A stretch of 61,839 bases of DNA. It comes from a virus. This document shows, piece by piece, positions 5,083 to 61,839 of this stretch (the first letter of the stretch is position 1; each line of letters starts with the position of its first letter). The position numbers and the translations under genes are program-made. The notes below the pieces were generated by a model. The model was not told where the DNA came from, searched no databases, and saw only the letters and a program-made list of their open reading frames with translations. The stretch lies in IMG/VR virus record IMGVR_UViG_3300029566_000017; one strand, given 5' to 3'.

Positions 5083-5360
5083 ATGCGCCCTCTTATCGCT
5101 GTAGTTCTTCTACAAAATGGCTCCCTAAAGGAATCCCCCTAACATCAAGTTGAATCATTAAATCCGTGTTTTACAGTTTCAGCTTGTTTTCTTTGCAACC
5201 AGTTGGTTGGCAATTTCTATGCAGAGTAGCAGGAAATACACATGCTCTGTTGTTAATTGTCGAATCAGCTGTGCATACTCGTTAGTGGTATGACATCGAC
5301 TTCGTTTTAACCTCCTTCCTTTAGATTGCAAGGTATTATGCCATGCTGGCGAAGGGGAAG

Positions 5361-5759
5361 TCAGGCCTTGCCTTTGCCTTGCAACAGCCCTTTTATAATT
5401 TGCTCGATAGCCATCTTTTGGGTGTCATCGAGCTTCTGAATCTGTTTAGCAATCTCAATAGCCTGTTCGTCGAGAAGCTGGGCGTTGAGCTGCTGTTTTA
5501 CTGCTTCGGTGTCTATGCCGAGGGACTTTGCTTGTTGTTCTGTTACACCGAGAGCGTAGTCTTTATCTTCATAAAAGTAACCTACTGGAACGTTAAAGTA
5601 ATCAGCTATTTTTTGAATTTTATCTGCTTTTGGTGTTGATTTACCATTTTTCCAGAAAGTAAACATTGAGGAAGATAAACCTGTGTCTTTACAGACTTTA
5701 TACGCAGATGTATTAGACTTTTCCAATAATGCTGCGAATTTGTCGTAGTTAAGGGACAT
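5361..5759 (-). CDS. CI-like repressor (XRE-family HTH)
   Basis: N-terminal HTH (SAYKVCKDTGLSSSMFTFWKNGKSTP). RBS GAGGTG before the ATG at 5759. It is divergent from the cro-like gene. Confidence 0.8.
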   Translation of the reverse strand: MSLNYDKFAALLEKSNTSAYKVCKDTGLSSSMFTFWKNGKSTPKADKIQKIADYFNVPVGYFYEDKDYALGVTEQQAKSLGIDTEAVKQQLNAQLLDEQAIEIAKQIQKLDDTQKMAIEQIIKGLLQGKGKA

Positions 5760-5943
5760 TATACACCTCAATTTTAAAAAAAATAAGCGAAAAAACACTT
5801 TACTTTTATAACTACATCTGTTATAATATAACTATAAAAATTAAACTAAAAAACGCTATAAAAATTAAACGCTCAGAAAAACGCTTTATTTTTATAACTA
5901 TTCTATCACGTTTTATTTTTAAAATCAAGAAAGGAGAGAATTT
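5760..5943. promoter_or_regulatory. Divergent switch region between cI-like and cro-like genes. It holds the palindrome TTATAACtacatctGTTATAA and three AAACGCT direct repeats.
   Basis: AT-rich 184-bp intergenic region with inverted and direct repeats, as in phage operator regions. Confidence 0.5.
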
Positions 5944-6129
5944 ATGTACAAAAAATATGCGATGCTGTTAAAAGAACGTAATGTAAGCAGCTATAAAGTA
6001 GCTAAAGATACTGGCATTTCGTCTTCTACATTTACTTTTTGGAAAAACGGCAAGTGTAAACCGAAGATTGATAAGCTTCAAAAACTTGCCGAATACTTCG
6101 GCGTAAGTGTTGATTATTTTTTAGATTAA
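5944..6129 (+). CDS. Cro-like XRE-family HTH regulator
   Basis: 61 aa with HTH SSYKVAKDTGISSSTFTFWKNGKCKP, a paralogue of the repressor N-terminus. RBS AAAGGAGAG. Confidence 0.75.
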   Translation: MYKKYAMLLKERNVSSYKVAKDTGISSSTFTFWKNGKCKPKIDKLQKLAEYFGVSVDYFLD

Positions 6130-6141
6130 GGAGTGAAAAAG

Positions 6142-6438
6142 ATGAAAAAGGTATTGCAAATCTGCGTATGCATTATCTTTGCATGGTGTTGTCTTAGCTT
6201 AGTTGGCGGATTTTCGGACAGCCAGGTGCAAAGGCATACAGTTACGCACATTGTACAAGAAGGCGAAACCATGTATGGAATCGCTGACAAATATTTTCTG
6301 CTTAACAAAACAAGGATTTGTTTTGACGAGTTTTGGTATAACGTATCCGAAGATAATAAGCACCTGACCGCCAACCGCCGTTATCTCCAGCCTGGAGATG
6401 TGGTCACTGTTAATTACTACACAGTGAAAGAACAATGA
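6142..6438 (+). CDS. Secreted LysM-domain protein
   Basis: N-terminal signal-like hydrophobic segment, then a LysM signature (HIVQEGETMYGIADKYF...LQPGDVVTVNY). Confidence 0.65.
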   Translation: MKKVLQICVCIIFAWCCLSLVGGFSDSQVQRHTVTHIVQEGETMYGIADKYFLLNKTRICFDEFWYNVSEDNKHLTANRRYLQPGDVVTVNYYTVKEQ

Positions 6439-6497
6439 TAGCAGGGCATAAAGCCTTCTCGCTATACATTAATTGTAACAGAAAGGAGTTGAGCATT

Positions 6498-6968
6498 ATG
6501 GCAGAAAGTAAAGCTAACATCTATAAGGCAGCTAGAGAATACGCACGAATTAGCCGTGTTGATGCTGCGGAAGCCTTTGCTATATCTGCTAGTTGTCTTA
6601 AGGATTACGAAACCGACGTGCGTGGTGTTCCGGATGTTACGGCATTGCAAATGTCTCGGTTGTATCGTACACCTTGGTTAAGGGTTCAGCACTTGCAAAG
6701 AAATGTAGTGTTTTGCGACGTTTTTGGACTTATTCCTCCGGCTGATGATTTGGCGGTGAATATGTTAAGGGCGCAAAAAGAAGTCGGTGAAGTGGTTGAG
6801 TTGTTTCCGCAAATGGTAGCGAAAACAGTACAAAAAAAGCACCTCGGCGACAGTCTTTTAAAAGAATGCCGGGAAGGTGCACAGGCTTTGCTTGTGTTGA
6901 TTGGTATTGAAGAAGAACAAAAAGAAAAGACCCCCCACGCTAATAGAGAGCCTTTAACCTATAAATAA
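6498..6968 (+). CDS. Hypothetical protein with an N-terminal HTH-like segment
   Basis: RBS AAAGGAG before the ATG at 6498. It begins with an XRE-like motif. Confidence 0.5.
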   Translation: MAESKANIYKAAREYARISRVDAAEAFAISASCLKDYETDVRGVPDVTALQMSRLYRTPWLRVQHLQRNVVFCDVFGLIPPADDLAVNMLRAQKEVGEVVELFPQMVAKTVQKKHLGDSLLKECREGAQALLVLIGIEEEQKEKTPHANREPLTYK

Positions 6969-7037
6969 AGTCGAAAGGAAATCGGTTTAAAAAATAGGTC
7001 ATATATAGTATAGCATACGGAAAAGAGGTTGTCAAAC

Positions 7038-7238
7038 ATGGAAAGCAGATTCTACACAGCTAAAGACATTGCCAACCTTTTAGGCGTAGGCGTTGGAAAA
7101 GGCTACTCGCTTATAAGGGAATGGAACAAAGAGCTTCAGCAAAAAGGCTATACAACTGCACAAGGCAGAGTAGTTAAAGCCTATGCTGATTTAAAACTTG
7201 GTTTCGGAATTCAAAAGGAGGATGTATATGGTAACTAA
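7038..7238 (+). CDS. Small DNA-binding protein, excisionase or MerR-like HTH
   Basis: Motif YTAKDIANLLGVGVGKGYSLIREW is typical of Xis/AlpA-type HTH proteins. Confidence 0.5.
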   Translation: MESRFYTAKDIANLLGVGVGKGYSLIREWNKELQQKGYTTAQGRVVKAYADLKLGFGIQKEDVYGN

Positions 7239-7599
7239 TGAACAGGTCAACGCCGTGTTAGCTCGCAGCGGACTTAGCATGGAAGGATTCGAAGCTTTTA
7301 GAAAAAGAAAGCATGGTGAGCATAAGCAGACGAAAGAGAGCTGGTTGAAAGACTTTAAGACTTGCTCACACTGTACCAGGGATGGCAAATGTAAGTATCA
7401 ACACTTCGGATACCACCAGGAAAAACAGGCTGTGCGTGAAGGTGATGTGTTAAGCTATAACGTTAACAGCTTGTCGGTAAATATGCAAACATATCCTAAA
7501 GTTGGCAGTTATCGCGAATGCTGTCACTGGGATGCTGAAACAACTCTTAAGCTTCACAGCAAACTCGAAGAGCTGGTTAAGGAAGGAAAGGTGATTTAA
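7228..7599 (+). CDS. Hypothetical Cys/His-containing protein
   Basis: RBS AAGGAGG 8 nt before the ATG. Confidence 0.5.
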   Translation: MVTNEQVNAVLARSGLSMEGFEAFRKRKHGEHKQTKESWLKDFKTCSHCTRDGKCKYQHFGYHQEKQAVREGDVLSYNVNSLSVNMQTYPKVGSYRECCHWDAETTLKLHSKLEELVKEGKVI

Positions 7600-8271
7600 A
7601 TGGAAATGAGCGAGAAAATCGACGCTTTGGCTGAAGCCTTAGCAAAGGCTCAGGGCGAAATGAAAAATGCTGTTAAAGGCTGTGACAATCCGTTTTTTAA
7701 AAGCAAATATGCGGATTTAGCGGAATGCCTGAACGTAGCACGTGAGCCGCTTAGCAAGAACGGCTTAAGCATATTCCAGGCTAACGAAGGAATTGTAGAA
7801 AGCAATAAGCTTGCTGTTACTACAATGATCATGCACAGCAGTGGACAATTTCTTAAAGTTACTAGCAGTTATCCTATTCAGAAAAATGATGCCCAGGGTT
7901 TTGGCAGTACGCTGACATACGCTAGAAGATATAGCCTTGCAGCAGCTCTTGGACTTGCGCAAGAGGACGATGACGGAAATTCAGCTTGTGCACCGGAACC
8001 GAAGCAAGATTTTAAAGCCAAAAACACAGAGCAGAAGCCTAAAGCTCAACCGCAATCTACCGGAAATAAATTTGTTAAGATTACCCCTCAAGGTGACATT
8101 GTTGTAACTGTTGCTAATGGTCACGATAAGAACGGCAGACCGCTTGCTGCCTACAAAAACATTAAGGACTTGACTATTGAAGAGCTTGAAAAAATGGTTA
8201 CGATTCCTCAATATGCGCTTGCTCATACAGCTATTAAGACCTTGCTTGAAGAAATGGGGCAGACAGCATGA
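7600..8271 (+). CDS. ERF-family single-strand annealing protein
   Basis: Motifs NPFFKSKYADLA and TYARRYSL are characteristic of ERF-superfamily recombinases. Confidence 0.7.
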   Translation: MEMSEKIDALAEALAKAQGEMKNAVKGCDNPFFKSKYADLAECLNVAREPLSKNGLSIFQANEGIVESNKLAVTTMIMHSSGQFLKVTSSYPIQKNDAQGFGSTLTYARRYSLAAALGLAQEDDDGNSACAPEPKQDFKAKNTEQKPKAQPQSTGNKFVKITPQGDIVVTVANGHDKNGRPLAAYKNIKDLTIEELEKMVTIPQYALAHTAIKTLLEEMGQTA

Positions 8272-50887: not shown

Positions 50888-51576
50888 TTATGGCTACAAG
50901 CGAAAGAATGTATAACCATTTGTTAAGTCAGTTTCGCAACAAGCCTAACATTAAAGCTTTTCTTAATGCCGTCGGAAACGAACTCGACAGCATAGATAAA
51001 GTAAGGGAGCAGATAAGAACACAGATATGGCCAGATACGGCAGTTGGTAAGCAGCTTGATATGTGCGGTGAAGTCGCTGATATTTCTCGCCGTGTTGAAA
51101 ATGCTATTGCAATGGATTTTTTTGGTTTTCCTGATCATGGCAACATGGGATTCGGACAAGCTCCGTTTAGACGTATGTATGATAATTATCTTACATCCAG
51201 CGATTTAAACGACCGTTATTATCGTCTTGCTGTTATCTCGAAGATTGAGAAAAATACAACTGACTGTTCTCGTGTTAGTACCATACATAGTATAAAGAAT
51301 GTTTTTAACGTTGAACGTGTTTCTGCTGTAAATGCCGGAAATGCTAAAATGCGCATAGGAATAGGGCGTTTGGTAACCAGTAAAGAAAGCCGTTTAATTG
51401 ATGCACTGAACCTTATTATCCGTGGCGCAGGTATCGGCGTTATTTATGTTTATTCTTTTGATGCTGCAAATACGTTCGGTTTCAGCAGAAGCGGAGAAAA
51501 TCCCTATAGGTTTAAAGGTTTTAACCAAGGAACATTCGCAAGGATTATAAAAGTGAAAGGGGGACTTGTTGAATAA
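50884..51576 (+). CDS. Tail protein I-like (DUF2313-like)
   Basis: Assigned by position after J. Confidence 0.45.
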   Translation: MIMATSERMYNHLLSQFRNKPNIKAFLNAVGNELDSIDKVREQIRTQIWPDTAVGKQLDMCGEVADISRRVENAIAMDFFGFPDHGNMGFGQAPFRRMYDNYLTSSDLNDRYYRLAVISKIEKNTTDCSRVSTIHSIKNVFNVERVSAVNAGNAKMRIGIGRLVTSKESRLIDALNLIIRGAGIGVIYVYSFDAANTFGFSRSGENPYRFKGFNQGTFARIIKVKGGLVE

Positions 51577-52025
51577 TGGTAATGAAACAGCCTACTTTTG
51601 ATTTGATTTTTGGTAGTAGCGCAAGCATTGGTGAGATGATTGATTCTTGGCCTGAGCTTGATTACCTTCGTGGTTGGGGTTATCTTGACAAAGGAGAAGC
51701 GCCGCCGCTTGAATACTTTAACAAATTGCAAAATGTTAGCGATTTAAAAAGTCAATACCTTTTTAACAGCTTAAACATTCGTAAGAACAATACATCTTAT
51801 GTTAATGGCGATATTGTATTGTCACCTAACTTGCCTAAAAGTCTTGTGTTAGCATGTACTGTTGGCGGCGATACAGCTGTGAGTGAGCCAGATTTTCGAG
51901 AAGCTGTGCTCGGAGCAACTTATACTGATGGCTCAGTGACATGGGAGGTTATTCCGAGAGCTTACAAATTGAAGACGGCAACTGAATCTGAAATTCAGAA
52001 TTTGATTACAAAGGAGCTGGCATAA
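51576..52025 (+). CDS. Hypothetical tail fibre-associated protein
   Basis: ORF. Confidence 0.45.
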   Translation: MVMKQPTFDLIFGSSASIGEMIDSWPELDYLRGWGYLDKGEAPPLEYFNKLQNVSDLKSQYLFNSLNIRKNNTSYVNGDIVLSPNLPKSLVLACTVGGDTAVSEPDFREAVLGATYTDGSVTWEVIPRAYKLKTATESEIQNLITKELA

Positions 52026-52447
52026 TGGCTAACTTTCAAAAATTAATTGACCTTGACGGATTAAACTATTTTTTAGGGCAGATTAAAGCAAAATTTGTTC
52101 GTTCGGTTAACGGCGCAAAACCCGATTCTAAAGGAAATGTTAACATTGCTAATATGGAAGGTGCAACATCTAACGCTGCTGGCAAGGCAGGACTTGTTCC
52201 AGTTCCGGCAGCAGGAAAGCAGGATATGGCATTGTGTGGTGATGCTACATATAAAGTTCTTCCTATTGCTGGTGGTGGCACTGGGCAAACAACTGTTGCC
52301 GGTATTCGCAATGTTTTGGGTTTAGGCAACACGAGCGGCGCATTGCCTATTGCTAATGGTGGTACAGGAGCTACAACTCCTGAAGCTGCAAGAAAAAATC
52401 TTGGCATTGATAGTATAGGCGTAACAATGATTACCTATACAGAATAA
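52025..52447 (+). CDS. Tail fibre protein with an N-terminal module
   Basis: Motifs IAGGGTGQTTVAGIRNVLGLGNTSGALPIANGGTGATTPEAARKNLGI are typical of fibre N-termini in Firmicute prophages. Confidence 0.55.
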   Translation: MANFQKLIDLDGLNYFLGQIKAKFVRSVNGAKPDSKGNVNIANMEGATSNAAGKAGLVPVPAAGKQDMALCGDATYKVLPIAGGGTGQTTVAGIRNVLGLGNTSGALPIANGGTGATTPEAARKNLGIDSIGVTMITYTE

Positions 52448-52457
52448 GAGGTATATT

Positions 52458-52646
52458 ATGGCTGATAAAGTAGATGTAGTTACATCGTGGAGTAATGCTG
52501 GAACTTATACCTTCACCGTTCCGGAAGGTGTTACTGAAATTACTGTAGAGATTTCAGGAGCTGGAGCTGGCGGTTACGGAAGAAATTACAACAATAGTGG
52601 TAGCGGTGGTAGCGCTGGCGAAGGAAGCGGCGGTGAAGGTAACTAA
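52458..52646 (+). CDS. 62-aa Gly-rich peptide: a truncated glycine-rich domain, and a candidate substrate or precursor for the adjacent radical SAM enzyme
   Basis: Sequence ...TYTFTVPEGVTEITVEISGAGAGGYGRNYNNSGSGGSAGEGSGGEGN. It resembles the start of the Gly-rich domains in 53721-55487. RBS AAGAGGT. Confidence 0.45.
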   Translation: MADKVDVVTSWSNAGTYTFTVPEGVTEITVEISGAGAGGYGRNYNNSGSGGSAGEGSGGEGN

Positions 52647-52653
52647 AACGATC

Positions 52654-53718
52654 ATGAAAAACTTTAGTGAAGAAATACATAAGCTTAATGACCTTGGAGC
52701 TATTTACCTTCTTCTTGGTGCTACCTGTAATATGTCATGTAGGCATTGCGTTCAGACCCCTATAAAAAGCTGCTTTAACCTTTCTCCGCAAGGGGAAAAC
52801 TTATCGCAAGAGGTTAAAGACTTTATAGTTGCGTGGAGTAACCTGCCTTGGAAATACGCTGAAAATAATCCGCGCCGATTATATTTTTGGGGTGGAGAAC
52901 CTTTGCTTTATTGGGAAACCATTAAGAAGCTTGTGCTTGAATTTAAACAAAGCGGCGTAAAGAATGTCAGCTATAGAATTTTTAGCAATGGATTGCTTTT
53001 AAATGATGAAATAGTTGACTTCTGTAATGAGAATGATATTTGGTTTATTATGAGCTATGATGCACCAAATGCAAGAGCGGCGAGAAATGCAGTACCTAGT
53101 AAAGAAGCCTGCAAGAAGTTTTTACGTATAAGAAAAAGAACTGTCAATACTGTTTTTAATGCTATTAATGATAATATGGCAGAAGCTTTTGATTGGCTAC
53201 ATTATACGTTTCCTGAAACAGAAATTACTTGCGGTTTTATTAATGTATTAAGTGAGAATACTCCATTGGATTTGTATGAGTTTAAACCGAGTGCAGTAAA
53301 AAAAGCGGTTAAGAATTTGTGGCTGATCGCAAAATCTGATAGTAAGATTGCTCCATATATTCGACATTGGTTCTACTCAAAAATTTTGCGTGTAAGGAAT
53401 TTTGATAAAGAAGAATTTTATGAATATCCTTATCCGCCTTGCCGTCCTGCCGTTGTAAGCCTTAGCGTAAATTTTAACGGAGAAGTTATGCTGTGTCATA
53501 ATACTGATAGAATTGTTGGGCATATTACAGATAACTTTGTAGAGTTACAAGAAAAGCATAGAAAAATTTTCAATGAACTTCTGCCTGTTAAATGTAAAAC
53601 TTGTGAGCATTTGGATATTTGCCGTTGCATTTGTCCTATTGCGGTGCAAAAAGATGGCGAATTATGTTATTGTGAATATTTGCGGGAATTTTGGGGAGCA
53701 GTAAAAGAGGTGATGTAG
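52654..53718 (+). CDS. Radical SAM enzyme with a SPASM-like C-terminal Cys cluster
   Basis: Motifs CNMSCRHC (CxxxCxxC), GGEPLL, and C-terminal CRPA...C..C.....C.C.C...C.C. Confidence 0.75.
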   Translation: MKNFSEEIHKLNDLGAIYLLLGATCNMSCRHCVQTPIKSCFNLSPQGENLSQEVKDFIVAWSNLPWKYAENNPRRLYFWGGEPLLYWETIKKLVLEFKQSGVKNVSYRIFSNGLLLNDEIVDFCNENDIWFIMSYDAPNARAARNAVPSKEACKKFLRIRKRTVNTVFNAINDNMAEAFDWLHYTFPETEITCGFINVLSENTPLDLYEFKPSAVKKAVKNLWLIAKSDSKIAPYIRHWFYSKILRVRNFDKEEFYEYPYPPCRPAVVSLSVNFNGEVMLCHNTDRIVGHITDNFVELQEKHRKIFNELLPVKCKTCEHLDICRCICPIAVQKDGELCYCEYLREFWGAVKEVM

Positions 53719-53720
53719 AA

Positions 53721-55487
53721 ATGGCTACAGTAGGTTATGGCGAACGTGTAACAAGAACTATCAGTGTTACCCCTGGCACGCAGTACACTGTTACTATTGG
53801 TGCTGGTGGAAAAGGTGGCGAAGGTATAACAGCACACAATTCTAATTATATTTATGGTACAGCCGGAGAAGCTTCTTCTGCGTTAGGCGTGACTGCCAGA
53901 GGTGGCGTTTATAATGGCAGCAGTAACACTAATTACTCTAACGGCGGTTCTCCTGCTGGCAAGTCGAGCGGAAGTCAAGGTAGTACAGGTGGTAATGGTG
54001 TAGACGGATTTTGTATTTTATCCTATAAGGTTGATAAAGATAAGTATTCCCAAAAAATGAGTAGCATTCCAAAAACTGTTTTTGAGATGCAAAAAAAGGA
54101 CGGCTCGAAGTATCTGCTGTATAAAGATGTAGTTACGTTGAAGCGTGTAAGGCTTATATATAAAACTGTAGGTACATACAGTTTAAGAATCCCGGCTGGC
54201 ATTACAAAAATATATGTTACTGGTTGCGGTGGTGGTGCAGGCGGCATCACTGTTGGTGCTTATAATTCCTGCCCCACGTTGGATATGCAAGCAGGAAACG
54301 GCGGAGATACAAAAGTTGGCAGCTATGTTATTCCTGGCGGACAAGGTGCAACTGCTACTTTAAGAAGTGGTAATGTAATGACTGTTAATCAGCCTGCTGC
54401 TTCTAAAAATGGCGTAAGAGGTCAATATGTTACCGCTAGGAACAGAGATTTTTCTGTACATGGATATGGTTTTTTACTTAACAAGAATGGTGTTGCTACT
54501 TTAGCAGACGTAATGGGTAAGGTTGGATATTATTATGCTAATGTGCTTGGAACTAAAGACAGCGTAACCTATGCATCTACAGGAACGTTTGAATCGTTTA
54601 ATATCTATGGTGCAGGCGGTGGCTCTTATCATTTCTTTGACTCTGATGGCACTTCTAATCAAATTGGTGTTGCAGGAAATAGCGGTGCTTATGTTGCTGA
54701 TGCAGAAGTTGAAGTAATTCCAAACAGCACGATTCAGATTGTTGTAGGTGCAGGAGGTAAAAACACCTTTTATAGTAATGACGGCGACCGTGCAGGACGT
54801 TTTAGAGTGAGTGACGGAACACAAGGTTTTCTTATTATTGAATACGGTGGAACAACACCCTATATGCCTACAGTAAATAAAGAAGCTGAATTGACGTGTA
54901 GATGCTATTTAGATGATAGTGTTATTATGGGAAGCACAGTTACAGTTAATGGGGAAACACATCATACTAATCAATTAGGAGTATTCTCTTTATTAAATAA
55001 AACATGGGGTAGAAAAGAGAAGCTTACATTTGAATATATTGATAGTAGTGGAGTTTTGCATACTGCTGCATATAACGTGCAATACGGGGCAATAGAAGTG
55101 CTAGAAGTGAAATTTATATCTGTAATAACAGGAGAAAAACACTTTAGTTCTTCTGAAACCACGGCATCTTTTACTGTTCCGATTGGTATTACAAAAATTA
55201 AAGTTGATGCAGATTGCCTAATAGCTGATGCACCATTTGAAGAGGATGTTAGCTATGCAATTTCTGTTATAAATAACAGTACAAAAAAAGTATGGGGCAG
55301 TGGATATAGTTACTCCAACCTTGAGGATGAAGGTAACACCGACCACCAAGACATGCACAGTATAGTTGCAGTTACAGCTGGGAAAACGTATACTCTGACA
55401 CTTAATATTTCTGATTCTGTTGATGGAGTTACATTTAGTTGGGGCACTGATATTAATGAGTTGACTGCAACGGTGAGTGATTTATAA
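53721..55487 (+). CDS. Tail fibre protein with at least three glycine-rich domains and a C-terminal receptor-binding-like region
   Basis: Repeated pattern (Y.V/L.I/V..G.GG.GG ... G..G...I.Y). RBS AAGAGGTGA before the ATG. Confidence 0.6.
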   Translation: MATVGYGERVTRTISVTPGTQYTVTIGAGGKGGEGITAHNSNYIYGTAGEASSALGVTARGGVYNGSSNTNYSNGGSPAGKSSGSQGSTGGNGVDGFCILSYKVDKDKYSQKMSSIPKTVFEMQKKDGSKYLLYKDVVTLKRVRLIYKTVGTYSLRIPAGITKIYVTGCGGGAGGITVGAYNSCPTLDMQAGNGGDTKVGSYVIPGGQGATATLRSGNVMTVNQPAASKNGVRGQYVTARNRDFSVHGYGFLLNKNGVATLADVMGKVGYYYANVLGTKDSVTYASTGTFESFNIYGAGGGSYHFFDSDGTSNQIGVAGNSGAYVADAEVEVIPNSTIQIVVGAGGKNTFYSNDGDRAGRFRVSDGTQGFLIIEYGGTTPYMPTVNKEAELTCRCYLDDSVIMGSTVTVNGETHHTNQLGVFSLLNKTWGRKEKLTFEYIDSSGVLHTAAYNVQYGAIEVLEVKFISVITGEKHFSSSETTASFTVPIGITKIKVDADCLIADAPFEEDVSYAISVINNSTKKVWGSGYSYSNLEDEGNTDHQDMHSIVAVTAGKTYTLTLNISDSVDGVTFSWGTDINELTATVSDL

Positions 55488-55498
55488 GGAGGTAAAAA

Positions 55499-56083
55499 AT
55501 GGCAAGTACAACAGGTAAATTAGAGAAAATTCATGTATTCCCTAGTTATAACAGCTTCAATAAAAATATCTCTAGTGTAGGGAGTGATGATTTTGCTTTT
55601 GTTAAGACAGATTTGTTAGATAAACTGGCAGGAAATACTACACCTACCCTTGTAGCGTTGATTGACTGGGATACCATGAAAACAAGAAACGGTGGAACAG
55701 ATGTAAGAAACATTAACAATACTTCCACAGGCATTAAAGCTTATGGTGGCGATTCTTCTTTTCCAACAACATCGGGTGGAAGTGACAGTAGAAAAGGCAC
55801 GATAATGCTTAAAGAATCTTATACGCTGTATGATAAGATTTTGGTAGTTAGCTCAAGTGATAGCGGAAATATAGAAAAATACACTATTTTTAATGTTTGG
55901 GAGTTACAAAAGGCGTTTTCTGAAGGCTATAGGTTTTATCTTAGCTACGACGATGCTGAATATTGGGTAGTTTTTTCAGGAGTTCAAGTAGGAACGACTT
56001 CTCACCCTCTTTCTACCGATACCATTTGGTATACCGAAGTTCAAAACAGCTCTATCGTTGAAATTTATGGCGTTAAGTATTGA
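55499..56083 (+). CDS. Hypothetical tail fibre-associated protein
   Basis: RBS AAGGAGGT. Confidence 0.5.
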   Translation: MASTTGKLEKIHVFPSYNSFNKNISSVGSDDFAFVKTDLLDKLAGNTTPTLVALIDWDTMKTRNGGTDVRNINNTSTGIKAYGGDSSFPTTSGGSDSRKGTIMLKESYTLYDKILVVSSSDSGNIEKYTIFNVWELQKAFSEGYRFYLSYDDAEYWVVFSGVQVGTTSHPLSTDTIWYTEVQNSSIVEIYGVKY

Positions 56084-56096
56084 GGGGTGAATAATA

Positions 56097-56675
56097 ATGT
56101 TTTATTTGTTTAAAAACAAAAAAGGTATTGCTATTAGTATTTCCGAAGATTCTTTAAAAAACTACATTGCAGGCATGGATAACGGCGTTGATGAGTATGT
56201 TATTAAGAATATTAATTCTTCTGCTACTCCTACCGATTTTTTACTTGATGAAAATGGTAATGTGATTTTCCCGAAGGATGATGAGGCTTTAGTTTTAGCG
56301 TTCCAAAAGAAACTCAAACTGAAAGAGATTGACGAGTGGACTGAAAGTAAGATTACTGGTGGTTTTGTTAGTGAAGCAAGCGGAGAAAAAGTCACCTATG
56401 ATAGCGATTTGGAAACACAGATAACAATGCAAGGTATAGCCCTCAATGTCAGCACGCCGCTTTTTGCTGCAAAGTATCCTAACGGCTGCCCTGTGCGTGG
56501 CGTGGCTGAGGGTGCAGAAAGCAAAACTGTATATTGGCTCACGCCCGAACAGGTTATGCAGTGGATGGCGGATTTGTCGATGCATATCGGCACCTGCAAA
56601 CAAGCAGGCTGGGCAAAGCAGGCAGAAGTAGATGCTTGCAAAACAGTTTTTGAACTCGACAACATAGAATTGTAA
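56097..56675 (+). CDS. Hypothetical protein, possibly a fibre assembly or chaperone
   Basis: RBS GAGGGGTGA. Confidence 0.45.
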   Translation: MFYLFKNKKGIAISISEDSLKNYIAGMDNGVDEYVIKNINSSATPTDFLLDENGNVIFPKDDEALVLAFQKKLKLKEIDEWTESKITGGFVSEASGEKVTYDSDLETQITMQGIALNVSTPLFAAKYPNGCPVRGVAEGAESKTVYWLTPEQVMQWMADLSMHIGTCKQAGWAKQAEVDACKTVFELDNIEL

Positions 56676-56687
56676 TAGGTTAAAACA

Positions 56688-57323
56688 ATGCAAATTAAAA
56701 TTATTATAAAAACACAACGCCTTACTTTAAGCAGCAATAAAATTGTGTGTGGAACTAATAATTTTATTGAATGTTTGTTTGATTTTCAGTCTTCTGACTG
56801 GACCGAACTTGAAAAATGGGCATTATTTAAGGATGGGCAAAATACCTATGAAATGTATATCCAAGATAACAAATGTATCATTCCTGCCCAATGCATTTCT
56901 GATCAAGGCGAAGTTATTATGTCTGTTGTTGGACGAAACAACGGTAAGAATATAACGGCAACAGCAGAAGACAAATTGTTACTTATCTCCGGTCGAGCTT
57001 TTGACAATCCTGACGAAGAACGATTAACGCCGACTTATCTGGAAGAAGTTCTTGGCAAAGTACGCGATGAGAGCTTAAAGGCCGCTACAAGCGAAGCCAA
57101 CGCCGCTCAGAGCGCACAGGAAGCAGCAGACAGTGCGGCAGCAGCATTACAGTCCGAAAAGAACGCTAAGGCGAGCGAACAAGATTCTGAAGCCAGCAAG
57201 AACGCGGCGGCGCAGAGTGAAGCCAACAGCAAAACTAGCGAGAATGCGGCTAAGGGCTATGCTGATGATGCAGCGGAAGTAGAGATATTCCGAACATCAG
57301 TGAGTTGTTGGCAGAACTGCTGA
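56688..57323 (+). CDS. Tail fibre-like protein with Ala/Ser/Glu-rich heptad repeats
   Basis: Repeats SEANAAQSAQEAADSAAAALQSEKNAKASE... are typical of fibre shaft or collar segments. Confidence 0.45.
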   Translation: MQIKIIIKTQRLTLSSNKIVCGTNNFIECLFDFQSSDWTELEKWALFKDGQNTYEMYIQDNKCIIPAQCISDQGEVIMSVVGRNNGKNITATAEDKLLLISGRAFDNPDEERLTPTYLEEVLGKVRDESLKAATSEANAAQSAQEAADSAAAALQSEKNAKASEQDSEASKNAAAQSEANSKTSENAAKGYADDAAEVEIFRTSVSCWQNC

Positions 57324-57345
57324 AATTGGAGTGGTGAGGTGTTTT

Positions 57346-57672
57346 ATGATTGAATCAACTGTACAAACTGTAATAAATATTATTGTCGGTGCTGTTATTT
57401 CTTATCTTTTTGCCTCGTACTGTGCGAAGAAGAAGGAAAACAATGCTTTAAAAGCAGGTCTACAAGCCTTGCTGAGAGACAGAATTATCCAGGCGTATAA
57501 TCACTACGTCCAGGATAAAGGCTGGATACCAATCTATGCAAAAGAAAGCATTGATGCCTGCTACAAAAGTTATGAAGCGCTGGGCGATAATGGCGTGATT
57601 GACAATCTTATGCAGCAGATTAATGAGCTGCAGAACTATCCGCCAAAGAATCGAGGTGATGAAGATGCGTAA
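57346..57672 (+). CDS. Membrane protein, one N-terminal TM, possibly a holin-like or lysis-associated protein
   Basis: RBS GGTGAGGTG. Hydrophobic N-terminus. It precedes a two-TM holin candidate. Confidence 0.45.
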   Translation: MIESTVQTVINIIVGAVISYLFASYCAKKKENNALKAGLQALLRDRIIQAYNHYVQDKGWIPIYAKESIDACYKSYEALGDNGVIDNLMQQINELQNYPPKNRGDEDA

Positions 57673-57898
57673 ATTGCTTAATATGTTAAAAAAAGACGAG
57701 AACACGTTGAGTATCGGTAGACTGTGTGCCGTGCTTGCGTTTATTTTGTTTAGTGGAATTTCTCTTTACCTTGCGTTTTTCGTTAAGACGTGGGGCAACT
57801 ACGAAGCCTTTGCTATGGCTTGCGTATCGTTTATGTTGGCACAGCTTGGCAACAAGTATGTTGAAACTAAAGCAATGAAAGTGAAGAATGACGAGTAA
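57665..57898 (+). CDS. Putative holin with two TM segments
   Basis: 77 aa with two hydrophobic helices and a charged C-terminus. RBS GAGGTGA. Confidence 0.5.
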   Translation: MRKLLNMLKKDENTLSIGRLCAVLAFILFSGISLYLAFFVKTWGNYEAFAMACVSFMLAQLGNKYVETKAMKVKNDE

Positions 57899-58125
57899 AT
57901 TTTGAGTAACGCCACTTGACTTTTTTACAAAAATGCACTTGACTAATTTTCGCTAAAAACGCTGAAAGCTAGATATAGCAATGGTTTCAAGGCGTAATAA
58001 TGTTGCTTCAAAAAGTCAAGTGACACATATTTGACACACATTTTAGAAGATAAGTAACAACTTAACAAGTGAAATGTGAAATTAAGAAGTTAAATTAAAG
58101 AAGTTAAATTAAAGGAGTGATAATA

Positions 58126-58416
58126 ATGATTATTACAGGTATGGCGCATTTTGAATCGGTGTGCAAAAACAAATTAGTAGAGTGGTATAACCAATCTAAC
58201 AACATCCATCATGGCCCGAATGATGTTCAGCCTATTACATTAGAAAACGTCTATGTTGTATGGGCGTGCAAAACATTGCAAAATTATAAGGCGTTGCTGT
58301 CTACGACCGTAAGCGGTGATGGTATCTATGCGGAGTATACATACAACGGCGACAAGCAAGAAATGTATGAGGACGTATACAAAAAAGTTTCTAACCGCTG
58401 CTTAAAAAGTGAGTGA
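58126..58416 (+). CDS. Hypothetical protein
   Basis: RBS AAAGGAGTGA before the ATG. Confidence 0.45.
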   Translation: MIITGMAHFESVCKNKLVEWYNQSNNIHHGPNDVQPITLENVYVVWACKTLQNYKALLSTTVSGDGIYAEYTYNGDKQEMYEDVYKKVSNRCLKSE

Positions 58417-58426
58417 GGTGATAGTT

Positions 58427-59044
58427 ATGGACTGGAACAAAAGTCTTGCAAAAGAAATTGCAAAAGGACTGATTTATACAGGCATTGAAGGCGGTTATGA
58501 TAGCGTAGCCAAAAGCACAGCTTACGCATATCCTTCAATCGGTGTGAGCCAATGGGAAGGCAACAGAGCCAATGAGCTTTTGAGAGCTATTCCCGGCGGC
58601 GCAGAATTTGCGGACCGTACTTATATTGATATTAAAGCAAGCGGCGAACTGCCGATGCTTAAAGAGCTTTTGAGAAGCGAAGCAGGACAACAGGCGCAAT
58701 TAGATCAGTTGTCACGTGACTGCCTGAAATACGTCGAAGTCTTGCAGCAAGTACCGACGTTGGATGATACACGCTGCTTGATTTATGCTGGTATGTGGTG
58801 CCCGACTAGCACTTATGTTGTAAAGCGCTTCTTGGAGAATCGCTTTGAGCGTGTCGACCTGCGTAGCCTGGAAGCACTCTATAACCTGTTTAAAAGCTAT
58901 TATTGGATTGCGGCCGACGTTGGCGAAATATACAGACCTGGTTACGCCAACAGGGCGCAGACTACTTATGAGTATGTAGCAGGTATTGACCTGACTACTC
59001 CTTATGGTATTCCTGCCTACGGCAAAGCAGGAAACGGAAGATGA
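58427..59044 (+). CDS. Hypothetical protein, possibly a cell-wall hydrolase or endolysin (unverified)
   Basis: Placement after the holins. No recognised catalytic motif. Confidence 0.35.
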   Translation: MDWNKSLAKEIAKGLIYTGIEGGYDSVAKSTAYAYPSIGVSQWEGNRANELLRAIPGGAEFADRTYIDIKASGELPMLKELLRSEAGQQAQLDQLSRDCLKYVEVLQQVPTLDDTRCLIYAGMWCPTSTYVVKRFLENRFERVDLRSLEALYNLFKSYYWIAADVGEIYRPGYANRAQTTYEYVAGIDLTTPYGIPAYGKAGNGR

Positions 59045-59187
59045 TTTAACCTGGTCGATTTCGACCGTGTTAGATATAGTCACCGGCAAGAGGTTTAGTT
59101 ATTCCCTCTCCTATACGTGTAGCATTTTCTGTAATTTTTTTGCGTAAACAATCGGTGACACATTTTATAATGATTGGAGGTGATACA

Positions 59188-59286
59188 ATGGAAGAACTGA
59201 AAGCATTTGTTATTGACAAGAAATTTGTTGTTGGTCTGGTTGCAGGTTTTGTACTGGGTGCGCTGCATCATTATTTTGCACTCTAA
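59188..59286 (+). CDS. 32-aa hydrophobic peptide (MEELKAFVIDKKFVVGLVAGFVLGALHHYFAL)
   Basis: Strong RBS GGAGGTGA at 7 nt. Single TM. Toxin-like or holin-like. Confidence 0.35.
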   Translation: MEELKAFVIDKKFVVGLVAGFVLGALHHYFAL

Positions 59287-59495
59287 AATCATTCTGAATA
59301 TCTATCTTACAAGTAGGCTATAATTTAACGGTTTTGGGCAAAAATCACACACAAATTGCATCGTCTACAAGCGTTTAAAAAATAGTGCCGCTTATGATTT
59401 ATCGTGGCGGAATCTAAAATCGCTTGTAGGCGAAATTTGTGCGTCTGACAAGGTTTATTATATTTTACAAATATCAGTATTGCTAAGAGGTTATA

Positions 59496-59903
59496 ATGGA
59501 GAATGAAAAAACAAGCAAAACTAAAATTGTCGTTGCTTTTGTCGCTGGTGTGTGTGTTGCTTGCGGTATTTATGCCGCTCAACGCTTCGGCTGGGTCACC
59601 CCGGTATTCGGACGATGTGACAGAATATATTCTGACGGAAAGTCAATATCAGAAGTTAAGCAACAACTTGACGGAGCTAAAGACAATCAACGAAAATTAC
59701 AAAAAACTGCTGATGCAATCGAAGGGACAGTTGGGAACATCCGACAAGAAGTTAGCGGAGCTAGAGAAGAAGTCGGACGAGCTGAACAGTCTTTGTCTGA
59801 CGCTGAAAATCAAAGTCAAAGAGCAGGAGAGCTTATTGACGAGTGTCAATCAATCCTTAGCGGAGCTAGAAAAAGAGTACAAGCTAAAACAGAAGCGCAT
59901 TAA
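59496..59903 (+). CDS. Membrane-anchored coiled-coil protein. The frame was chosen over the overlapping 59503-59967 by codon usage.
   Basis: RBS AAGAGGT. N-terminal TM followed by a coiled coil. A-ending and T-ending codons predominate, as in the rest of the genome. Confidence 0.4.
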   Translation: MENEKTSKTKIVVAFVAGVCVACGIYAAQRFGWVTPVFGRCDRIYSDGKSISEVKQQLDGAKDNQRKLQKTADAIEGTVGNIRQEVSGAREEVGRAEQSLSDAENQSQRAGELIDECQSILSGARKRVQAKTEAH

Positions 59904-60198
59904 AAAACAGCGCAACATAGCCTACGTTATAGCAGGATGTGCGCTTTATGCTGCAATGAAGAATTAAGGCAAAGTTTGTCTTTCCTTATTTTGTTGCAAA
60001 AAAAATTCCCTTGTGTTATAATTATATCGTTAATAAAACCTTCATGTTTAAAACTGTTGATTGGTGGATTTCATTCGATATCCATTAAAGCGTTCTGTAT
60101 AAAGCAGGACGCTTTTATTTTGCTTAAATTATTTAGTGACTGACTGTTTGTTGATGTGATATAATATATCAAAAAGATATATTATATGAGGTGATAGG

Positions 60199-60366
60199 AT
60201 GAATGATAACGAAAATGTTAAGCAGGAAGTTTTGCCTGCTGGCATGGTAACAATGTTGTTTGCTGAAAACAAAAGAATTATTGATAAGCAGTTTTATATC
60301 ATGGCCGGAATGTTGATCGCTAACATTGGTCTGATTGCGCTGCTTGCTTATGTTTTGAAAAGGTGA
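60199..60366 (+). CDS. Small membrane protein, 55 aa
   Basis: RBS GAGGTGA before the ATG. C-terminal TM. Confidence 0.35.
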   Translation: MNDNENVKQEVLPAGMVTMLFAENKRIIDKQFYIMAGMLIANIGLIALLAYVLKR

Positions 60367-60370
60367 TTTA

Positions 60371-60604
60371 ATGAAAGAACTGCAAAAGAGCGTAAGAGCC
60401 TGGCTGACAGAAAGTTCCAGACGCTCATTTTATGCAGTGCTTCAGGAAGCGAAAATAACGCCTAGACAAATGCAAATCTGTGAGATGAAATTTGTTGAAG
60501 GCAAGATGAATTATCAAATCGCAATGGAGCTAAACATCTCCACTAAAACTGTTGACCGAGAAATAAGCACTGCTTACAAAGCTATTAATCGAGTGCTAAT
60601 GTGA
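60371..60604 (+). CDS. Sigma-70 region 4 / LuxR-type HTH regulator
   Basis: QMQICEMKFVEGKMNYQIAMELNISTKTVDREISTAYKAINRVL is a classic region-4 HTH. Confidence 0.5.
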   Translation: MKELQKSVRAWLTESSRRSFYAVLQEAKITPRQMQICEMKFVEGKMNYQIAMELNISTKTVDREISTAYKAINRVLM

Positions 60605-60607
60605 TAA

Positions 60608-60658
60608 TACAGCCATCTAAAAGGTTACATTTTGTAACAGTTTAGATGGCTGTATTTT
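60608..60658. terminator. Strong terminator: 13-bp stem ACAGCCATCTAAA...TTTAGATGGCTGT followed by T7
   Basis: Seen directly. An inner GTTAC...GTAAC palindrome lies in the loop. Confidence 0.65.
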
Positions 60659-60761
60659 TTTGCCCATTTTTATTAAATGTCTGTTTTTGTAGGCTTTTTT
60701 GTCTGTTTGTTTAGGGATTTTTTATATTATGCTCATTTAAAATATAGGTGAGGTGATAAGA

Positions 60762-61259
60762 ATGTACGGACAATATGGACCTTATAACCCTTATGCCGGG
60801 GCGACACAGCAAATGCAGCAACGGCTGAATTATTTGCAACAACAGCAACAAATGTATCAACCTGCATATCAGCAATCTATGCAGCAAGCTCCTGTACAGC
60901 TAAAAGGAAGGATAGTTACAAGCATCGATGAAGCAAAAGCAGCTCAGGTTGACCTTGACGGAAGCAGTACATATTTCCCGGCTCCTGCTGAAGGAAAGGT
61001 TTATGAAAAGCTTATAGGCATGGACGGCTTACCTGTATTTAGGGTATATACCTTGCAGGAAAGCGGAGGGCAAAAACAACCTGTATATGCTGACAATAAT
61101 GTTGTTATAGCCTTGCAACGAAGAATCGAAAAGATTGAAGAGCAGATTGGAGGAATGACGAATGATGAACATATTTCAGATGATGCAGATGGTGCAGCAG
61201 GCAGGAAATCCAATGGGACTAATGGAGCAGTTCGCAGGACAAAATCCGCTAATGAGTAG
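60762..61259 (+). CDS. Q/Y-rich hypothetical protein with a spore-coat-like composition
   Basis: RBS GGTGAGGTG. N-terminal MYGQYGPYNPY...QQQQQMYQPAYQQSMQQ. The 3' end overlaps the next ORF. Confidence 0.45.
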   Translation: MYGQYGPYNPYAGATQQMQQRLNYLQQQQQMYQPAYQQSMQQAPVQLKGRIVTSIDEAKAAQVDLDGSSTYFPAPAEGKVYEKLIGMDGLPVFRVYTLQESGGQKQPVYADNNVVIALQRRIEKIEEQIGGMTNDEHISDDADGAAGRKSNGTNGAVRRTKSANE

Positions 61260-61392
61260 GGCAATGCAGATGGGGCAAGGCAAGTCACCTGAACAGATTC
61301 AAAATATTGTAAGGAATCTTGCCAAACAAAAAGGCATGAATGATGAACAGCTTAATCAGTTTTTAAATCAATTTGGCTTAAAGCTTCAATAG
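61162..61392 (+). CDS. M/Q-rich small protein
   Basis: RBS GGAGG before the ATGATG. It overlaps the previous ORF by about 100 nt in another frame. Confidence 0.4.
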   Translation: MMNIFQMMQMVQQAGNPMGLMEQFAGQNPLMSRAMQMGQGKSPEQIQNIVRNLAKQKGMNDEQLNQFLNQFGLKLQ

Positions 61393-61437
61393 GCGCGCAA
61401 TGAAGCTTTGCATATATTTCTCGGAGGTGAAAAAATT

Positions 61438-61839
61438 ATGGAAGGTACAAACATTGTTCCGGTAATGGATATGAATCGAAACAACAACTATGGTGACTGC
61501 TGGGGCGGCGGTATGTGGTTTATGTGGATTATTGTCCTGTTTGCTCTTATGGGTGGCTGGGGCGGTAATTGGAATAACCGTGGTAACATGGGTGCTGAAA
61601 TTTTTGCTAATGGCAGCATGACACGTGATCAGATTGCAGACCAATTTTCCATGCAGGATATTAAAGACGGTATTCGTGGTGTGCAGAATGGCTTATGTGA
61701 TGGTTTTTACGCTCAGAACAGCACTATGCTGAATGGTTTTAACGGAGTACAGCGTGACATTATGCAGACTGGCTATCAGCTTGGTAGCGAGATTGCACAA
61801 AATCGTTTCGCTGCTCAACAATGCTGCTGCGAGCAAAAA
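61438..61839 (+). CDS. Hypothetical membrane-associated Gly/Trp/Asn-rich protein, 5' part. It continues as 1-444 across the junction.
   Basis: RBS GGAGGTGA. TM segment FMWIIVLFALMGGW. The frame is contiguous with 22-444. Confidence 0.55.
   Translation, partial: MEGTNIVPVMDMNRNNNYGDCWGGGMWFMWIIVLFALMGGWGGNWNNRGNMGAEIFANGSMTRDQIADQFSMQDIKDGIRGVQNGLCDGFYAQNSTMLNGFNGVQRDIMQTGYQLGSEIAQNRFAAQQCCCEQK

Follow-up and report, generated by a model that had tools for sequence, protein, structure and literature searches.

The radical S-adenosylmethionine (SAM) enzymes with a SPASM domain form a well described class, and the idea that such an enzyme acts on the product of an adjacent gene is also established. 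QhpD (TIGR03906) acts on a protein subunit, the gamma subunit of quinohemoprotein amine dehydrogenase, and not on a free peptide. The sulfatase maturase anSME (TIGR03942; PDB 4K36-4K39) acts directly on a protein and accepts Ser or Cys at its target, and in the GRRM system of TIGRFAMs a radical SAM enzyme is found together with a Gly-rich repeat protein. PapB, a ranthipeptide maturase (NF047865), crosslinks its substrate repeatedly, also at a C-terminal carboxylate, and requires little sequence context (PMC12373016), while TigE and TvgB act on short motifs which are tandemly repeated in the substrate (PMC10878394, PMC9062424). Here we analyzed a radical SAM/SPASM gene in the tail-fibre module of a phage of ~62 kb with a contractile tail (myovirus, classed via PHROG matches), given as IMG/VR virus record IMGVR_UViG_3300029566_000017; the whole stretch of 61,839 nucleotides (nt) is called the window. 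The reading favoured with moderate confidence is a portable cassette of tag and maturase within the late tail operon, in which the enzyme would modify the Ser/Gly/Glu tail at the C-terminus of the upstream gene's product. The new elements are the motif of the proposed substrate, its setting in virion proteins, the portability between tail genes and the domain splitting that goes with it. A full-text search of the literature yielded no account of tail proteins being modified by a radical SAM/SPASM enzyme from a phage tail module; the original prediction made from the sequence of the window had likewise put the arrangement as not known to be described in a virion structural module.

The cassette is formed by three open reading frames (ORFs), encoding a protein of 62 amino acids (aa), the enzyme and a fibre protein, with the following features.

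52446-52451, plus strand: Shine-Dalgarno-like AAGAGG, 6 nt upstream of the ATG of the 62-aa ORF (from reading of the sequence)
52458-52646, plus strand: 62-aa ORF, stop codon TAA, followed by 7 nt
52611-52643, plus strand: proposed substrate tag S52-A-G-E55-G-S57-G-G-E60-G-N62, with two C-terminal S-x-x-E units
52654-53718, plus strand: radical SAM/SPASM enzyme, 354 aa, start codon ATG at 52654, followed by 2 nt
52726-52749, plus strand: CNMSCRHC (CxxxCxxC), ligands of the radical-SAM [4Fe-4S] cluster
53440-53673, plus strand: SPASM region with seven conserved Cys
53706-53710, plus strand: Shine-Dalgarno-like AGAGG within the end of the enzyme gene, 10 nt upstream of the fibre ATG (from reading of the sequence)
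53721-54035, plus strand: first ~105 aa of the fibre, which hold the C-terminal part of the split Gly_rich_2 domain (..ISVTPGTQYTVTIGAGGKGG ... GVDGFCILSYKV)
54036-55487, plus strand: remainder of the 588-aa fibre, with one full copy of Gly_rich_2 and a distal part in which the FTVPxG start is degenerate

The enzyme family comprises 321 clusters at 50% identity (E<=1e-30), and its members were traced as far as 35% identity through collections of viral, genomic and metagenomic sequences. Its constant neighbour is the C-terminal tail of the upstream protein, whose consensus is S-x-G-E-G-S-G-G-E-G with 0-2 further residues before the stop codon. With the single exception of L168, every phage-borne relative of at least 35% identity with usable upstream DNA has, 0-630 nt upstream of the enzyme, an ORF whose Gly-rich tail ends in at least two [SC]xx[ED] units; these are ~50 loci which represent at least 12 distinct arrangements. 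The proteins carrying the tail are otherwise unrelated, have a length of 56-624 aa and belong to tail modules of myo-, podo- and siphovirus type; the main kinds of carrier are as follows.

Window, L088, L157: half-domain protein, 62-65 aa
L159: podovirus nozzle protein, first of its two pieces, 227 aa
L014, L166: carriers ending in the N-terminal part of Gly_rich_2, 268 aa (L014) and 286 aa (L166)
L160, L161, L090, L016, L089, L194: carriers without any Gly_rich_2 part, 193-624 aa

When 15 diverse carriers were aligned, conserved columns were confined to the tail, with E60 invariant and S52, G58 and G59 kept at 90% or above. Such tails are present on 57 of the 5314 ORFs of at least 60 aa in the fetched loci, and about 46 of these 57 are neighbours of the enzyme. 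The codons of the tail vary between lineages (GGN for Gly, GAA or GAG for Glu, AGY or TCN for Ser), and since these changes are synonymous and even switch the Ser codon family, the constraint acts on the protein; a tail serving as a DNA-level element only is ruled out by the same variation. A lineage at 35-40% identity has Cys in place of Ser in its tails (C-G-S-E-G-G-C-G-G-G-E-G and C-S-V-D-S-S-G-C-G-G-E-G-G), and tails of the C-x2-3-[ED] type were seen in the L024 and L030 lineages only. The gene downstream of the enzyme is not conserved: it is a holin gene in L090, L020 and L161, a gene for an unrelated 800-aa protein in L016 and the nozzle gene in L159, and the C-terminal part of the fibre is absent in many lineages. 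Comparison of these loci indicates that tail and enzyme move as a pair between unrelated tail genes. The earlier suggestion that the phage modifies its own fibre or a fibre-derived peptide is retained in one part, as the tail is a conserved partner, but not for the Cys-Gly runs of the downstream fibre, which were rejected as a conserved substrate because the downstream gene varies between lineages.

The second line of evidence is a domain which is divided between two polypeptides. The PF21722 (Gly_rich_2) profile has 226 positions, and its match in the window is not made by a single polypeptide but shared by two: the 62-aa ORF covers profile positions 3-43 (E 7e-5; 23.4 bits against a cut-off of 24.3), so that it holds the start of a Gly-rich domain only, as had been predicted, and aa 6-96 of the fibre cover positions 41-129 (39.4 bits). 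The phrog_11737 profile (195 positions) is shared likewise, with positions 7-54 on the 62-aa ORF and 53-162 on the fibre. The domain is cut at profile position ~41-43, and the 62-aa protein consists of three predicted strands (..TYTFTVPEGVTEITVEISGAGAGG..) and the C-terminal tail. The nearest uninterrupted relative, of a kind for which the original prediction had proposed to look, is P0087 (264 aa), which phmmer aligned in one continuous stretch over the junction of both ORFs; therefore the enzyme gene sits exactly within one domain. No radical SAM gene was found within 8 kb of the P0087 gene. The Gly_rich_2 domain of phage minor tail and tail-fibre proteins is usually contiguous, as in P0087, whereas here its first Gly-rich loop is a free, acidic and conserved C-terminal tail. 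The fibre has 588 aa instead of the 589 first given, and the three or more complete domain copies first counted in it are reduced to what is left of the split domain (aa 1-105), a single full copy (aa ~145-385) and a Gly-poor stretch which keeps only the FTVPxGITKIKV start, at aa ~479. Its length is 386-588 aa among close relatives, with a variable distal part, and in L088 and L157 the C-terminal part of the split domain stands alone as an ORF of 129 or 145 aa.

The cut recurs together with the tail. Wherever the tail sits on the N-terminal part of Gly_rich_2, the polypeptide stops directly after it, and in the window, L159 and L166 the cut falls at profile position ~40-43. In the window, L088 and L157 the enzyme gene occupies the gap between the domain halves. 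In L159, a contig of a T7-like podovirus (4312-8175), the phrog_376 nozzle protein itself is encoded in two pieces of 227 aa (profile 3-198) and 699 aa (profile 162-711), and the gap holds the split Gly_rich_2 domain and the radical SAM gene. The cut in L014 lies directly after a ..SGGEGA tail, the second half being a separate ORF of 164 aa which is followed by the enzyme gene; the two ORFs flanking this cut gave no Pfam match. L166 (2441-5020) has the domain in three consecutive ORFs, of 286 aa ending in ..SSDGSSGGEA, of 56 aa ending in ..SSGEGSGGEGG and of 107 aa for the C-terminal part, and then the radical SAM gene, so that two tagged C-termini are present in one locus. As the cut after the tail is kept in L014 and L166, where the enzyme gene is not in the gap, an accidental insertion is hard to uphold. 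The split follows the tail and not the position of the enzyme gene, which fits an enzyme that would need its tag as a free C-terminus.

The 62-aa ORF is a genuine gene under purifying selection. It was analyzed in 14 close relatives from IMG/VR and two gut metagenome-assembled genomes (MAGs), whose enzymes are 89-98% identical to that of the window; all 14 keep the three genes together with an intact small ORF of 62-67 aa, and with the window the 15 small genes have 11 distinct DNA sequences. The pairwise ratio of non-synonymous to synonymous substitution rates (dN/dS) is 0.12 for the small ORF, 0.145 for its tail and 0.20 for the fibre, and all three genes of the cassette are under selection. 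Where the enzyme is 83% or 71% identical, the order is still 65 aa, enzyme and 145 or 129 aa, the downstream ORF being the rest of the domain only. Two objections which the original prediction had raised against itself are answered by these data: homologous phages keep the enzyme beside the fibre, and a pseudogenised 5' fragment is ruled against by the dN/dS of 0.12 and by the ORF being intact down to 71% enzyme identity.

The enzyme, assigned from the start to the radical SAM/SPASM class on its CNMSCRHC, GGEPLL and C-terminal Cys motifs, was confirmed there by motifs and by hidden Markov model searches. CNMSCRHC lies at aa 25-32 and GGEPLL at aa 80-85; CxxxCxxC is invariant in 35/35 homologues, and GGE (G80-G81-E82) is also invariant. 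The SPASM pattern, CX9-15GX4C - gap - CX2CX5CX3C - gap - C, with two auxiliary [4Fe-4S] clusters, is matched by C263-x12-G276-x4-C281 ... C314-x2-C317-x5-C323-x3-C327 ... C340, and all seven Cys are kept in 30/30 phage-type homologues, as are CxxxCxxC and GGE, contrary to the concern that they might not be conserved. PF04055 scores 30.8 bits against a cut-off of 29.5, TIGR04085 (SPASM) barely passes with 27.1 against 27, and PF13186 stays below its threshold (15.1 against 21.5). By these sequence measures the protein belongs to the radical SAM superfamily and the SPASM subfamily. Its best NCBIfam matches are maturases of peptides or proteins (CcpM, QhpD, PapB, SCIFF and anSME), all far below their cut-offs; CcpM and QhpD match the N-terminal half, and PapB and anSME span the full length. 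An AlphaFold2 model from 35 homologues has a mean predicted local distance difference test (pLDDT) of 91.9 and a single compact radical SAM+SPASM fold, for which Foldseek gave anSMEcpe, CteB, ChlB and TigE as top matches. In a profile search against the PDB, TigE (9e-29) and CteB (4e-22) were closest and anSME was not found. Pairwise dN/dS among close relatives is 0.09. The enzyme is thus a radical SAM/SPASM protein of the peptide/protein-maturase kind, its closest matches being CcpM, QhpD, PapB, TigE, CteB and anSME and not QueE, which had been considered. A QueE or defence role was rejected because the matches are limited to the generic radical SAM core, and viperin (pVip) was rejected because the PADLOC (2e-13) and NCBIfam matches cover only this core (aa 19-144), the C-terminal half being SPASM. 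No PqqD-like RiPP recognition element (RRE), the leader-recognition domain in systems of peptides that are ribosomally synthesised and modified after translation (RiPPs), was found on the enzyme with Pfam and NCBIfam, and CxxxCxxC comes already at aa 25.

The start of the enzyme gene deserves attention. The true start is the ATG at 52654; public gene calls (e.g. P0001, 373 aa) take the GTG at 52597 inside the 62-aa ORF, and the resulting N-terminal extension (52597-52653) is the Gly-rich tail in another frame and without conservation. Gene callers are misled here because GGN/GAR-rich DNA leaves all three frames open. The ATG has no clear Shine-Dalgarno sequence at normal spacing, and translation may occur by re-initiation 7 nt past the stop of the peptide gene. 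The packing had been described correctly, with gaps of 7 nt and 2 nt, and the spacing is tight or overlapping at the cassette in all lineages; by its gene arrangement the enzyme appears to be co-transcribed, and mostly translationally coupled, with the tail-bearing tail protein.

The phage enzyme was compared with the known systems. Like PapB and QhpD it combines radical SAM and SPASM domains, and the PapB profile aligns over the full length (enzyme aa 15-328 to profile 3-317 of 330). The phage tails, as [S/C]-x-x(-x)-[E/D] repeats at the C-terminus, are comparable to the PapB target pattern, and in the Cys-type tails the Cys stands two or three residues N-terminal of Asp/Glu, which is the PapB crosslink geometry (PMC12373016). 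Membership of the PapB type is not indicated by the scores (50.7/340 for PapB and 51/453 for QhpD). Substrate motifs of the PapB type are Cys-x3-Asp, and at the place of the Cys of PapA and QhpC most phage lineages, the window among them, carry Ser. Unlike in PapB and QhpD, the proposed substrates are phage tail proteins and the enzyme is encoded by the phage within a structural operon. Structurally anSME matches best (Foldseek E 1e-12, TM score ~0.6); it is of similar size and, like the phage enzyme, lacks a leader-binding domain; the Ser-type and Cys-type tails parallel its acceptance of both residues. The phage enzyme falls outside the anSME family with 35.3 bits against 349.45, the sulfatase motif (C/S)-x-(P/A)-x-R is absent from every tail, and the phage family conserves seven Cys in the SPASM region where anSME uses eight. 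By sequence, the closest relatives of solved structure are the cyclopropyl synthases TigE/TvgB and the SCIFF maturase CteB, TigE and CteB having ~90-100 extra N-terminal residues which are absent from the phage enzyme. In every cyclopropyl synthase, auxiliary cluster I is ligated through the Tyr of a Gly-Tyr-Trp motif (PMC10878394), and the repeated motif of their substrates has Val or Ile; the phage enzyme, with ..RHWFYSK.. at this position and tails containing no Val or Ile, does not fall among them. GRRM was not among the NCBIfam families listed for the enzyme (25 of the 32 found), and the 62-aa ORF and the fibre had no NCBIfam match.

It is proposed that the enzyme abstracts a hydrogen atom inside the [S/C]-x-x-[E/D] units of the tail. 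The Ser/Cys side chain could then be linked to the carbon beside the Glu/Asp carboxylate three residues on, giving an ether or a thioether, a link which PapB and QhpD form from Cys, or the Ser/Cys could be oxidised to formylglycine as by anSME. For Ser-type tails either reaction would give -2 Da per site, and fragmentation together with aldehyde probes would separate the two; the calculated monoisotopic mass of the unmodified C-terminal peptide of the window, NYNNSGSGGSAGEGSGGEGN, is 1770.668 Da, and for the 441-aa carrier of L090, ending in ..IVGYYDEYEGSSGEGSGGEGSGGE, the C-terminal peptide is calculated at 2340.914 Da. Splitting of the domain would expose an internal Gly-rich loop as a free C-terminus acceptable to the enzyme, and the modified 62-aa protein would dock on the N-terminus of the fibre and complete the Gly_rich_2 domain. 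For the phage the gain may lie in stabilising a tip that is flexible, in protection against proteases of the gut or in host binding at the tail tip. We infer the tail as substrate, its reaction, the docking and the phage benefit from comparative genomics, on which all the functional claims rest. As the tag is found on proteins of 56-624 aa, it would be protein tagging and not a classic leader/core peptide system. If true, phage virion proteins would here be the target of a radical SAM/SPASM maturase for the first time, judging by the searchable literature, and with (S/C)-x-x-(E/D) repeats at the C-terminus as a new substrate motif the reaction could be new as well (a Ser-derived crosslink or an aldehyde), in an enzyme class valued for peptide engineering. 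It would also offer a reason why tail domains, even in the essential nozzle, are made in pieces, namely that a loop becomes a free end, and with the tag placed on distal parts of the tail, the modification may influence host recognition or how well virions survive in the gut. A bolder version, which we hold to be quite doubtful, is that the tag is used to stitch the split halves of tail proteins to each other, or to another partner in the virion or on the host surface, as a radical-mediated ligation carried by a hopping cassette.

Several points weigh against the proposed tag and maturase. The case comes from the comparison of genes, and co-occurrence is no proof of a substrate relation. In one locus (L168, a 5.5-kb contig), the sole exception seen, the enzyme and the second half of the domain are present with no tail-bearing ORF upstream of them or at any other place on the contig. 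Conservation of the tail could be partly translational, as GAA-GGN (GAAGG) resembles the ribosome-binding site of the next gene. A reverse scan of IMG/VR with the GEGSGGEG DNA motif returned 69 stretches, mostly of low complexity or in non-coding frames; among the ORFs of at least 60 aa which end within 3 residues past the motif and could be checked downstream, the enzyme was present in 7/9 and absent in 2/9, which may add weak support for the pairing. Known thioether chemistry cannot apply in the window because the 62-aa peptide has no Cys, and to our knowledge a Ser-Glu ether made by a radical SAM enzyme is without precedent. Nor can the reaction be transferred by homology, as the curated cut-offs are widely missed (PapB 50.7/340, anSME 35.3/349). 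Docking of the 62-aa protein on the fibre is expected but is a proposal, and a single-sequence AlphaFold2 model of the rejoined halves was poor (pLDDT 45.6), with strands on both sides and the tail and junction disordered.

Among other explanations, it is unlikely that the enzyme gene is a selfish or neutral insertion, that is, a radical SAM gene serving some other purpose (such as chemistry on nucleotides or cofactors, anti-defence or takeover of the host) which landed in a fibre gene whose pieces still assemble, the tail being a scar, a linker or a ribosome-binding site. The original prediction had considered an insertion splitting a fibre gene, which is right as a description, the domain being split exactly at the radical SAM gene; the enzyme gene also has a GC content of 0.33-0.36, slightly below the 0.40-0.44 of its flanks, GAAGG at the end of the tail can act as a Shine-Dalgarno sequence, and the N-terminal core is viperin-like in the range matched by PADLOC (pVip 2e-13, aa 19-144 only). 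Phage genes which are split yet functional do exist, such as nrdA of Aeromonas phage Aeh1, split by the homing endonuclease gene mobE, and the window resembles such genes-in-pieces in that a domain is made as two ORFs around an unrelated ORF, co-transcribed and presumably reassembled. It differs from them as the inserted ORF is a radical SAM maturase, as the cut recurs at the same loop in fibre, nozzle and other proteins, and as the cut persists without an ORF in the gap, always leaving the same conserved C-terminal tail. A homing endonuclease insertion was rejected on the domains found: the inserted ORF matches radical SAM, Fer4_12 and SPASM only, with no HNH/GIY-YIG/LAGLIDADG-type domain, and so is without a nuclease or mobility domain. 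A neutral accident is further opposed by the tail being conserved as protein through synonymous and Ser codon-family changes, by its presence at the end of unrelated, unsplit proteins (L160, L161, L090, L016, L089), by the loci L014, L166 and L159, in the first two of which the cut stays though the enzyme gene is outside the gap, and by the SPASM domain, typical of peptide/protein maturases, standing where viperin has its own C-terminal domain. That another virion protein is modified (the downstream fibre, the product of a 194-aa ORF following it, or the C-terminal part of the domain), with the tail only recruiting or positioning the enzyme or being irrelevant, seems quite unlikely: the C-terminal part of the fibre does keep a Cys in ..G(F/Y/W)CI(L/I).Y.. 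(window, L157, P0087), in several lineages a member of the 194-aa ORF family comes after the cassette and radical SAM thioether enzymes require the Cys which the window tail lacks, but no downstream gene is common to the family (L090, L020, L161, L016 and L159 all differ) and the tail alone is universal.

A true RiPP system, in which the tail would be a core peptide, modified, cleaved from a carrier acting as long leader and released as a bioactive peptide at lysis, is very unlikely. The gene order is the classic one, in which the core lies at the C-terminus of the upstream product and a radical SAM/SPASM gene comes next, and the nearest non-phage relatives (L013) belong to a cluster which is RiPP-like, having an ATP-grasp gene and a 53-aa Cys-rich peptide; the pairing with an upstream Gly-rich ORF, which had led to the first comparison with a RiPP locus, is upheld by comparative genomics. 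Against a released peptide stand the lack of a leader-binding domain or RRE on the enzyme, the late operon of the window having no protease, exporter or immunity gene, and the carriers, which are large tail proteins including the essential nozzle; of the classic features the adjacent 62-aa ORF is present, while in relatives the tag is on tail proteins of 193-624 aa. It is hardly credible, finally, that the fibre pieces are rejoined through an intron, an intein, a frameshift, bypass or readthrough, the stop of the 62-aa ORF being no real protein end. The 62-aa and fibre ORFs share a frame in the window and most close relatives and the enzyme frame is open through the tail region, but the latter is expected of GGN/GAR-rich DNA, and the former does not hold in L003 and L087; the frame of the enzyme relative to the tail ORF is +1, -1 or the same by lineage, and with such varying relations there is no conserved recoding or splicing device. 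The enzyme ORF, which lies in another frame and is delimited by stop and start codons, leaves only 7 and 2 nt of the gap free, every ORF begins with an ATG of its own, with Shine-Dalgarno-like motifs before the peptide and fibre genes and an enzyme ATG that fits coupled re-initiation, and no RNA family was matched in 51500-56200 (Rfam, E<=1).

The cassette ORFs come behind the baseplate genes of the window, and the head and tail genes preceding them, placed by PHROG matches, are listed here together with the ORFs next to and downstream of the cassette.

33039 (start): terminase
34826 (start): portal
37048 (start): head protease
38725 (start): major head protein
41886 (start): sheath
44115 (start): tape measure
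46956 (start): baseplate hub
49472 (start): baseplate wedge
52025-52447, plus strand: tail-fibre-like protein, 140 aa, C-terminus ..GIDSIGVTMITYTE (PHROG tail-fibre families, phrog_5481 1.4e-7 and others)
55499-56083, plus strand: 194-aa protein (..KIHVFPS..) beginning MASTTGKLEKIHVFPS, with no Pfam, PHROG or PADLOC match
56097-56675: DUF4376 protein, common beside tail fibres and also found in L014 and L160
58117-58416: DUF6275 protein, downstream context
60371-60604: 77-aa regulator, GerE / sigma-70 region 4-like, downstream context

The 140-aa neighbour puts the cassette in the fibre module, and this same C-terminus also precedes the peptide gene in L086 and L157. Homologues of the 194-aa ORF stand 3' of the cassette in arrangements which differ otherwise, in L088 (6894-7472), L157 (6540-7124), L160 (6104-6562) and L024 (7010-7423), and its product may be an accessory of the system, a fibre component or the fibre tip. 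Promoter-like and terminator-like sites occur at chance, with no excess over shuffled sequence, and no protease or transporter was seen in 51000-61800. The DNA of the region is unmatched in GenBank phages, where the enzyme has distant matches only (<31% protein identity). The gene for P0087 (L156, 5813-8795) comes two genes after a reverse transcriptase (RVT_1) in a tail module, and L157 (223-3838) encodes two Mtd_N proteins; both tail modules look like contexts of diversity-generating retroelements.

Further enzymes of this kind were seen at greater distance. L014 (8950-9957; also L015) has a second, different radical SAM/SPASM gene (335 aa) after a 573-aa fibre ending in ..VGSYDDYGGDS, so this phage may carry two enzyme-tail pairs. 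At ~25% identity, phage radical SAM/SPASM genes adjoin tail-fibre-like proteins with Cys-rich C-terminal tails, e.g. ..CPDCKDYPCSDSGDSCCNECDSG and ..CSGNCSSNCSTSCGGSCSTACGSGG, and pairs of an enzyme and a tagged tail protein may be a broader theme; the loci are L042/L095 (5695-7161), L060 (5384-7095), L103 (3753-7122) and L044 (5992-7980). On a bacterial-looking contig with rnpA and rpmH nearby (L013, 7515-18241), six or seven tandem radical SAM paralogues of 32-37% identity to the window enzyme are accompanied by the 53-aa Cys-rich peptide, which ends in ..GCPEQVPGCCCGCGSQ, the ATP-grasp gene and a further protein rich in Cys; the locus resembles a RiPP-type cluster, and among the non-phage relatives seen it is the nearest. 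The Sutterellaceae-associated loci (L091-L093, L173-L180) have 3-5 tandem paralogues of ~28% identity, with no tail-type neighbour seen, and also encode homologues of 663-800 aa (P0095, P0110, P0119), which were considered as substrate-enzyme fusions and turned out to be double radical SAM fusions. A few kb from these genes and on the opposite strand, L173-L175 and L180 contain an ORF of 122-127 aa (minus strand, e.g. L173 331-699) ending in a Ser/Phe/Gly/Asp repeat (..SSSFGDSFSSSSFGDSFGSGFDSGFSSGSSFGSDF).

The close relatives of the window come from human-gut assemblies, and one of them lies on a contig binned with Phascolarctobacterium, an assignment of host from a MAG bin which is weak. A 46%-identical enzyme is encoded in a prophage of the cultured isolate Succiniclasticum ruminis DSM 9236 (L090), near holin, lysin and recombinase genes. 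Phascolarctobacterium and Succiniclasticum are both Acidaminococcaceae and strict anaerobes, and for this reason an oxygen-sensitive enzyme would be well suited to these hosts.

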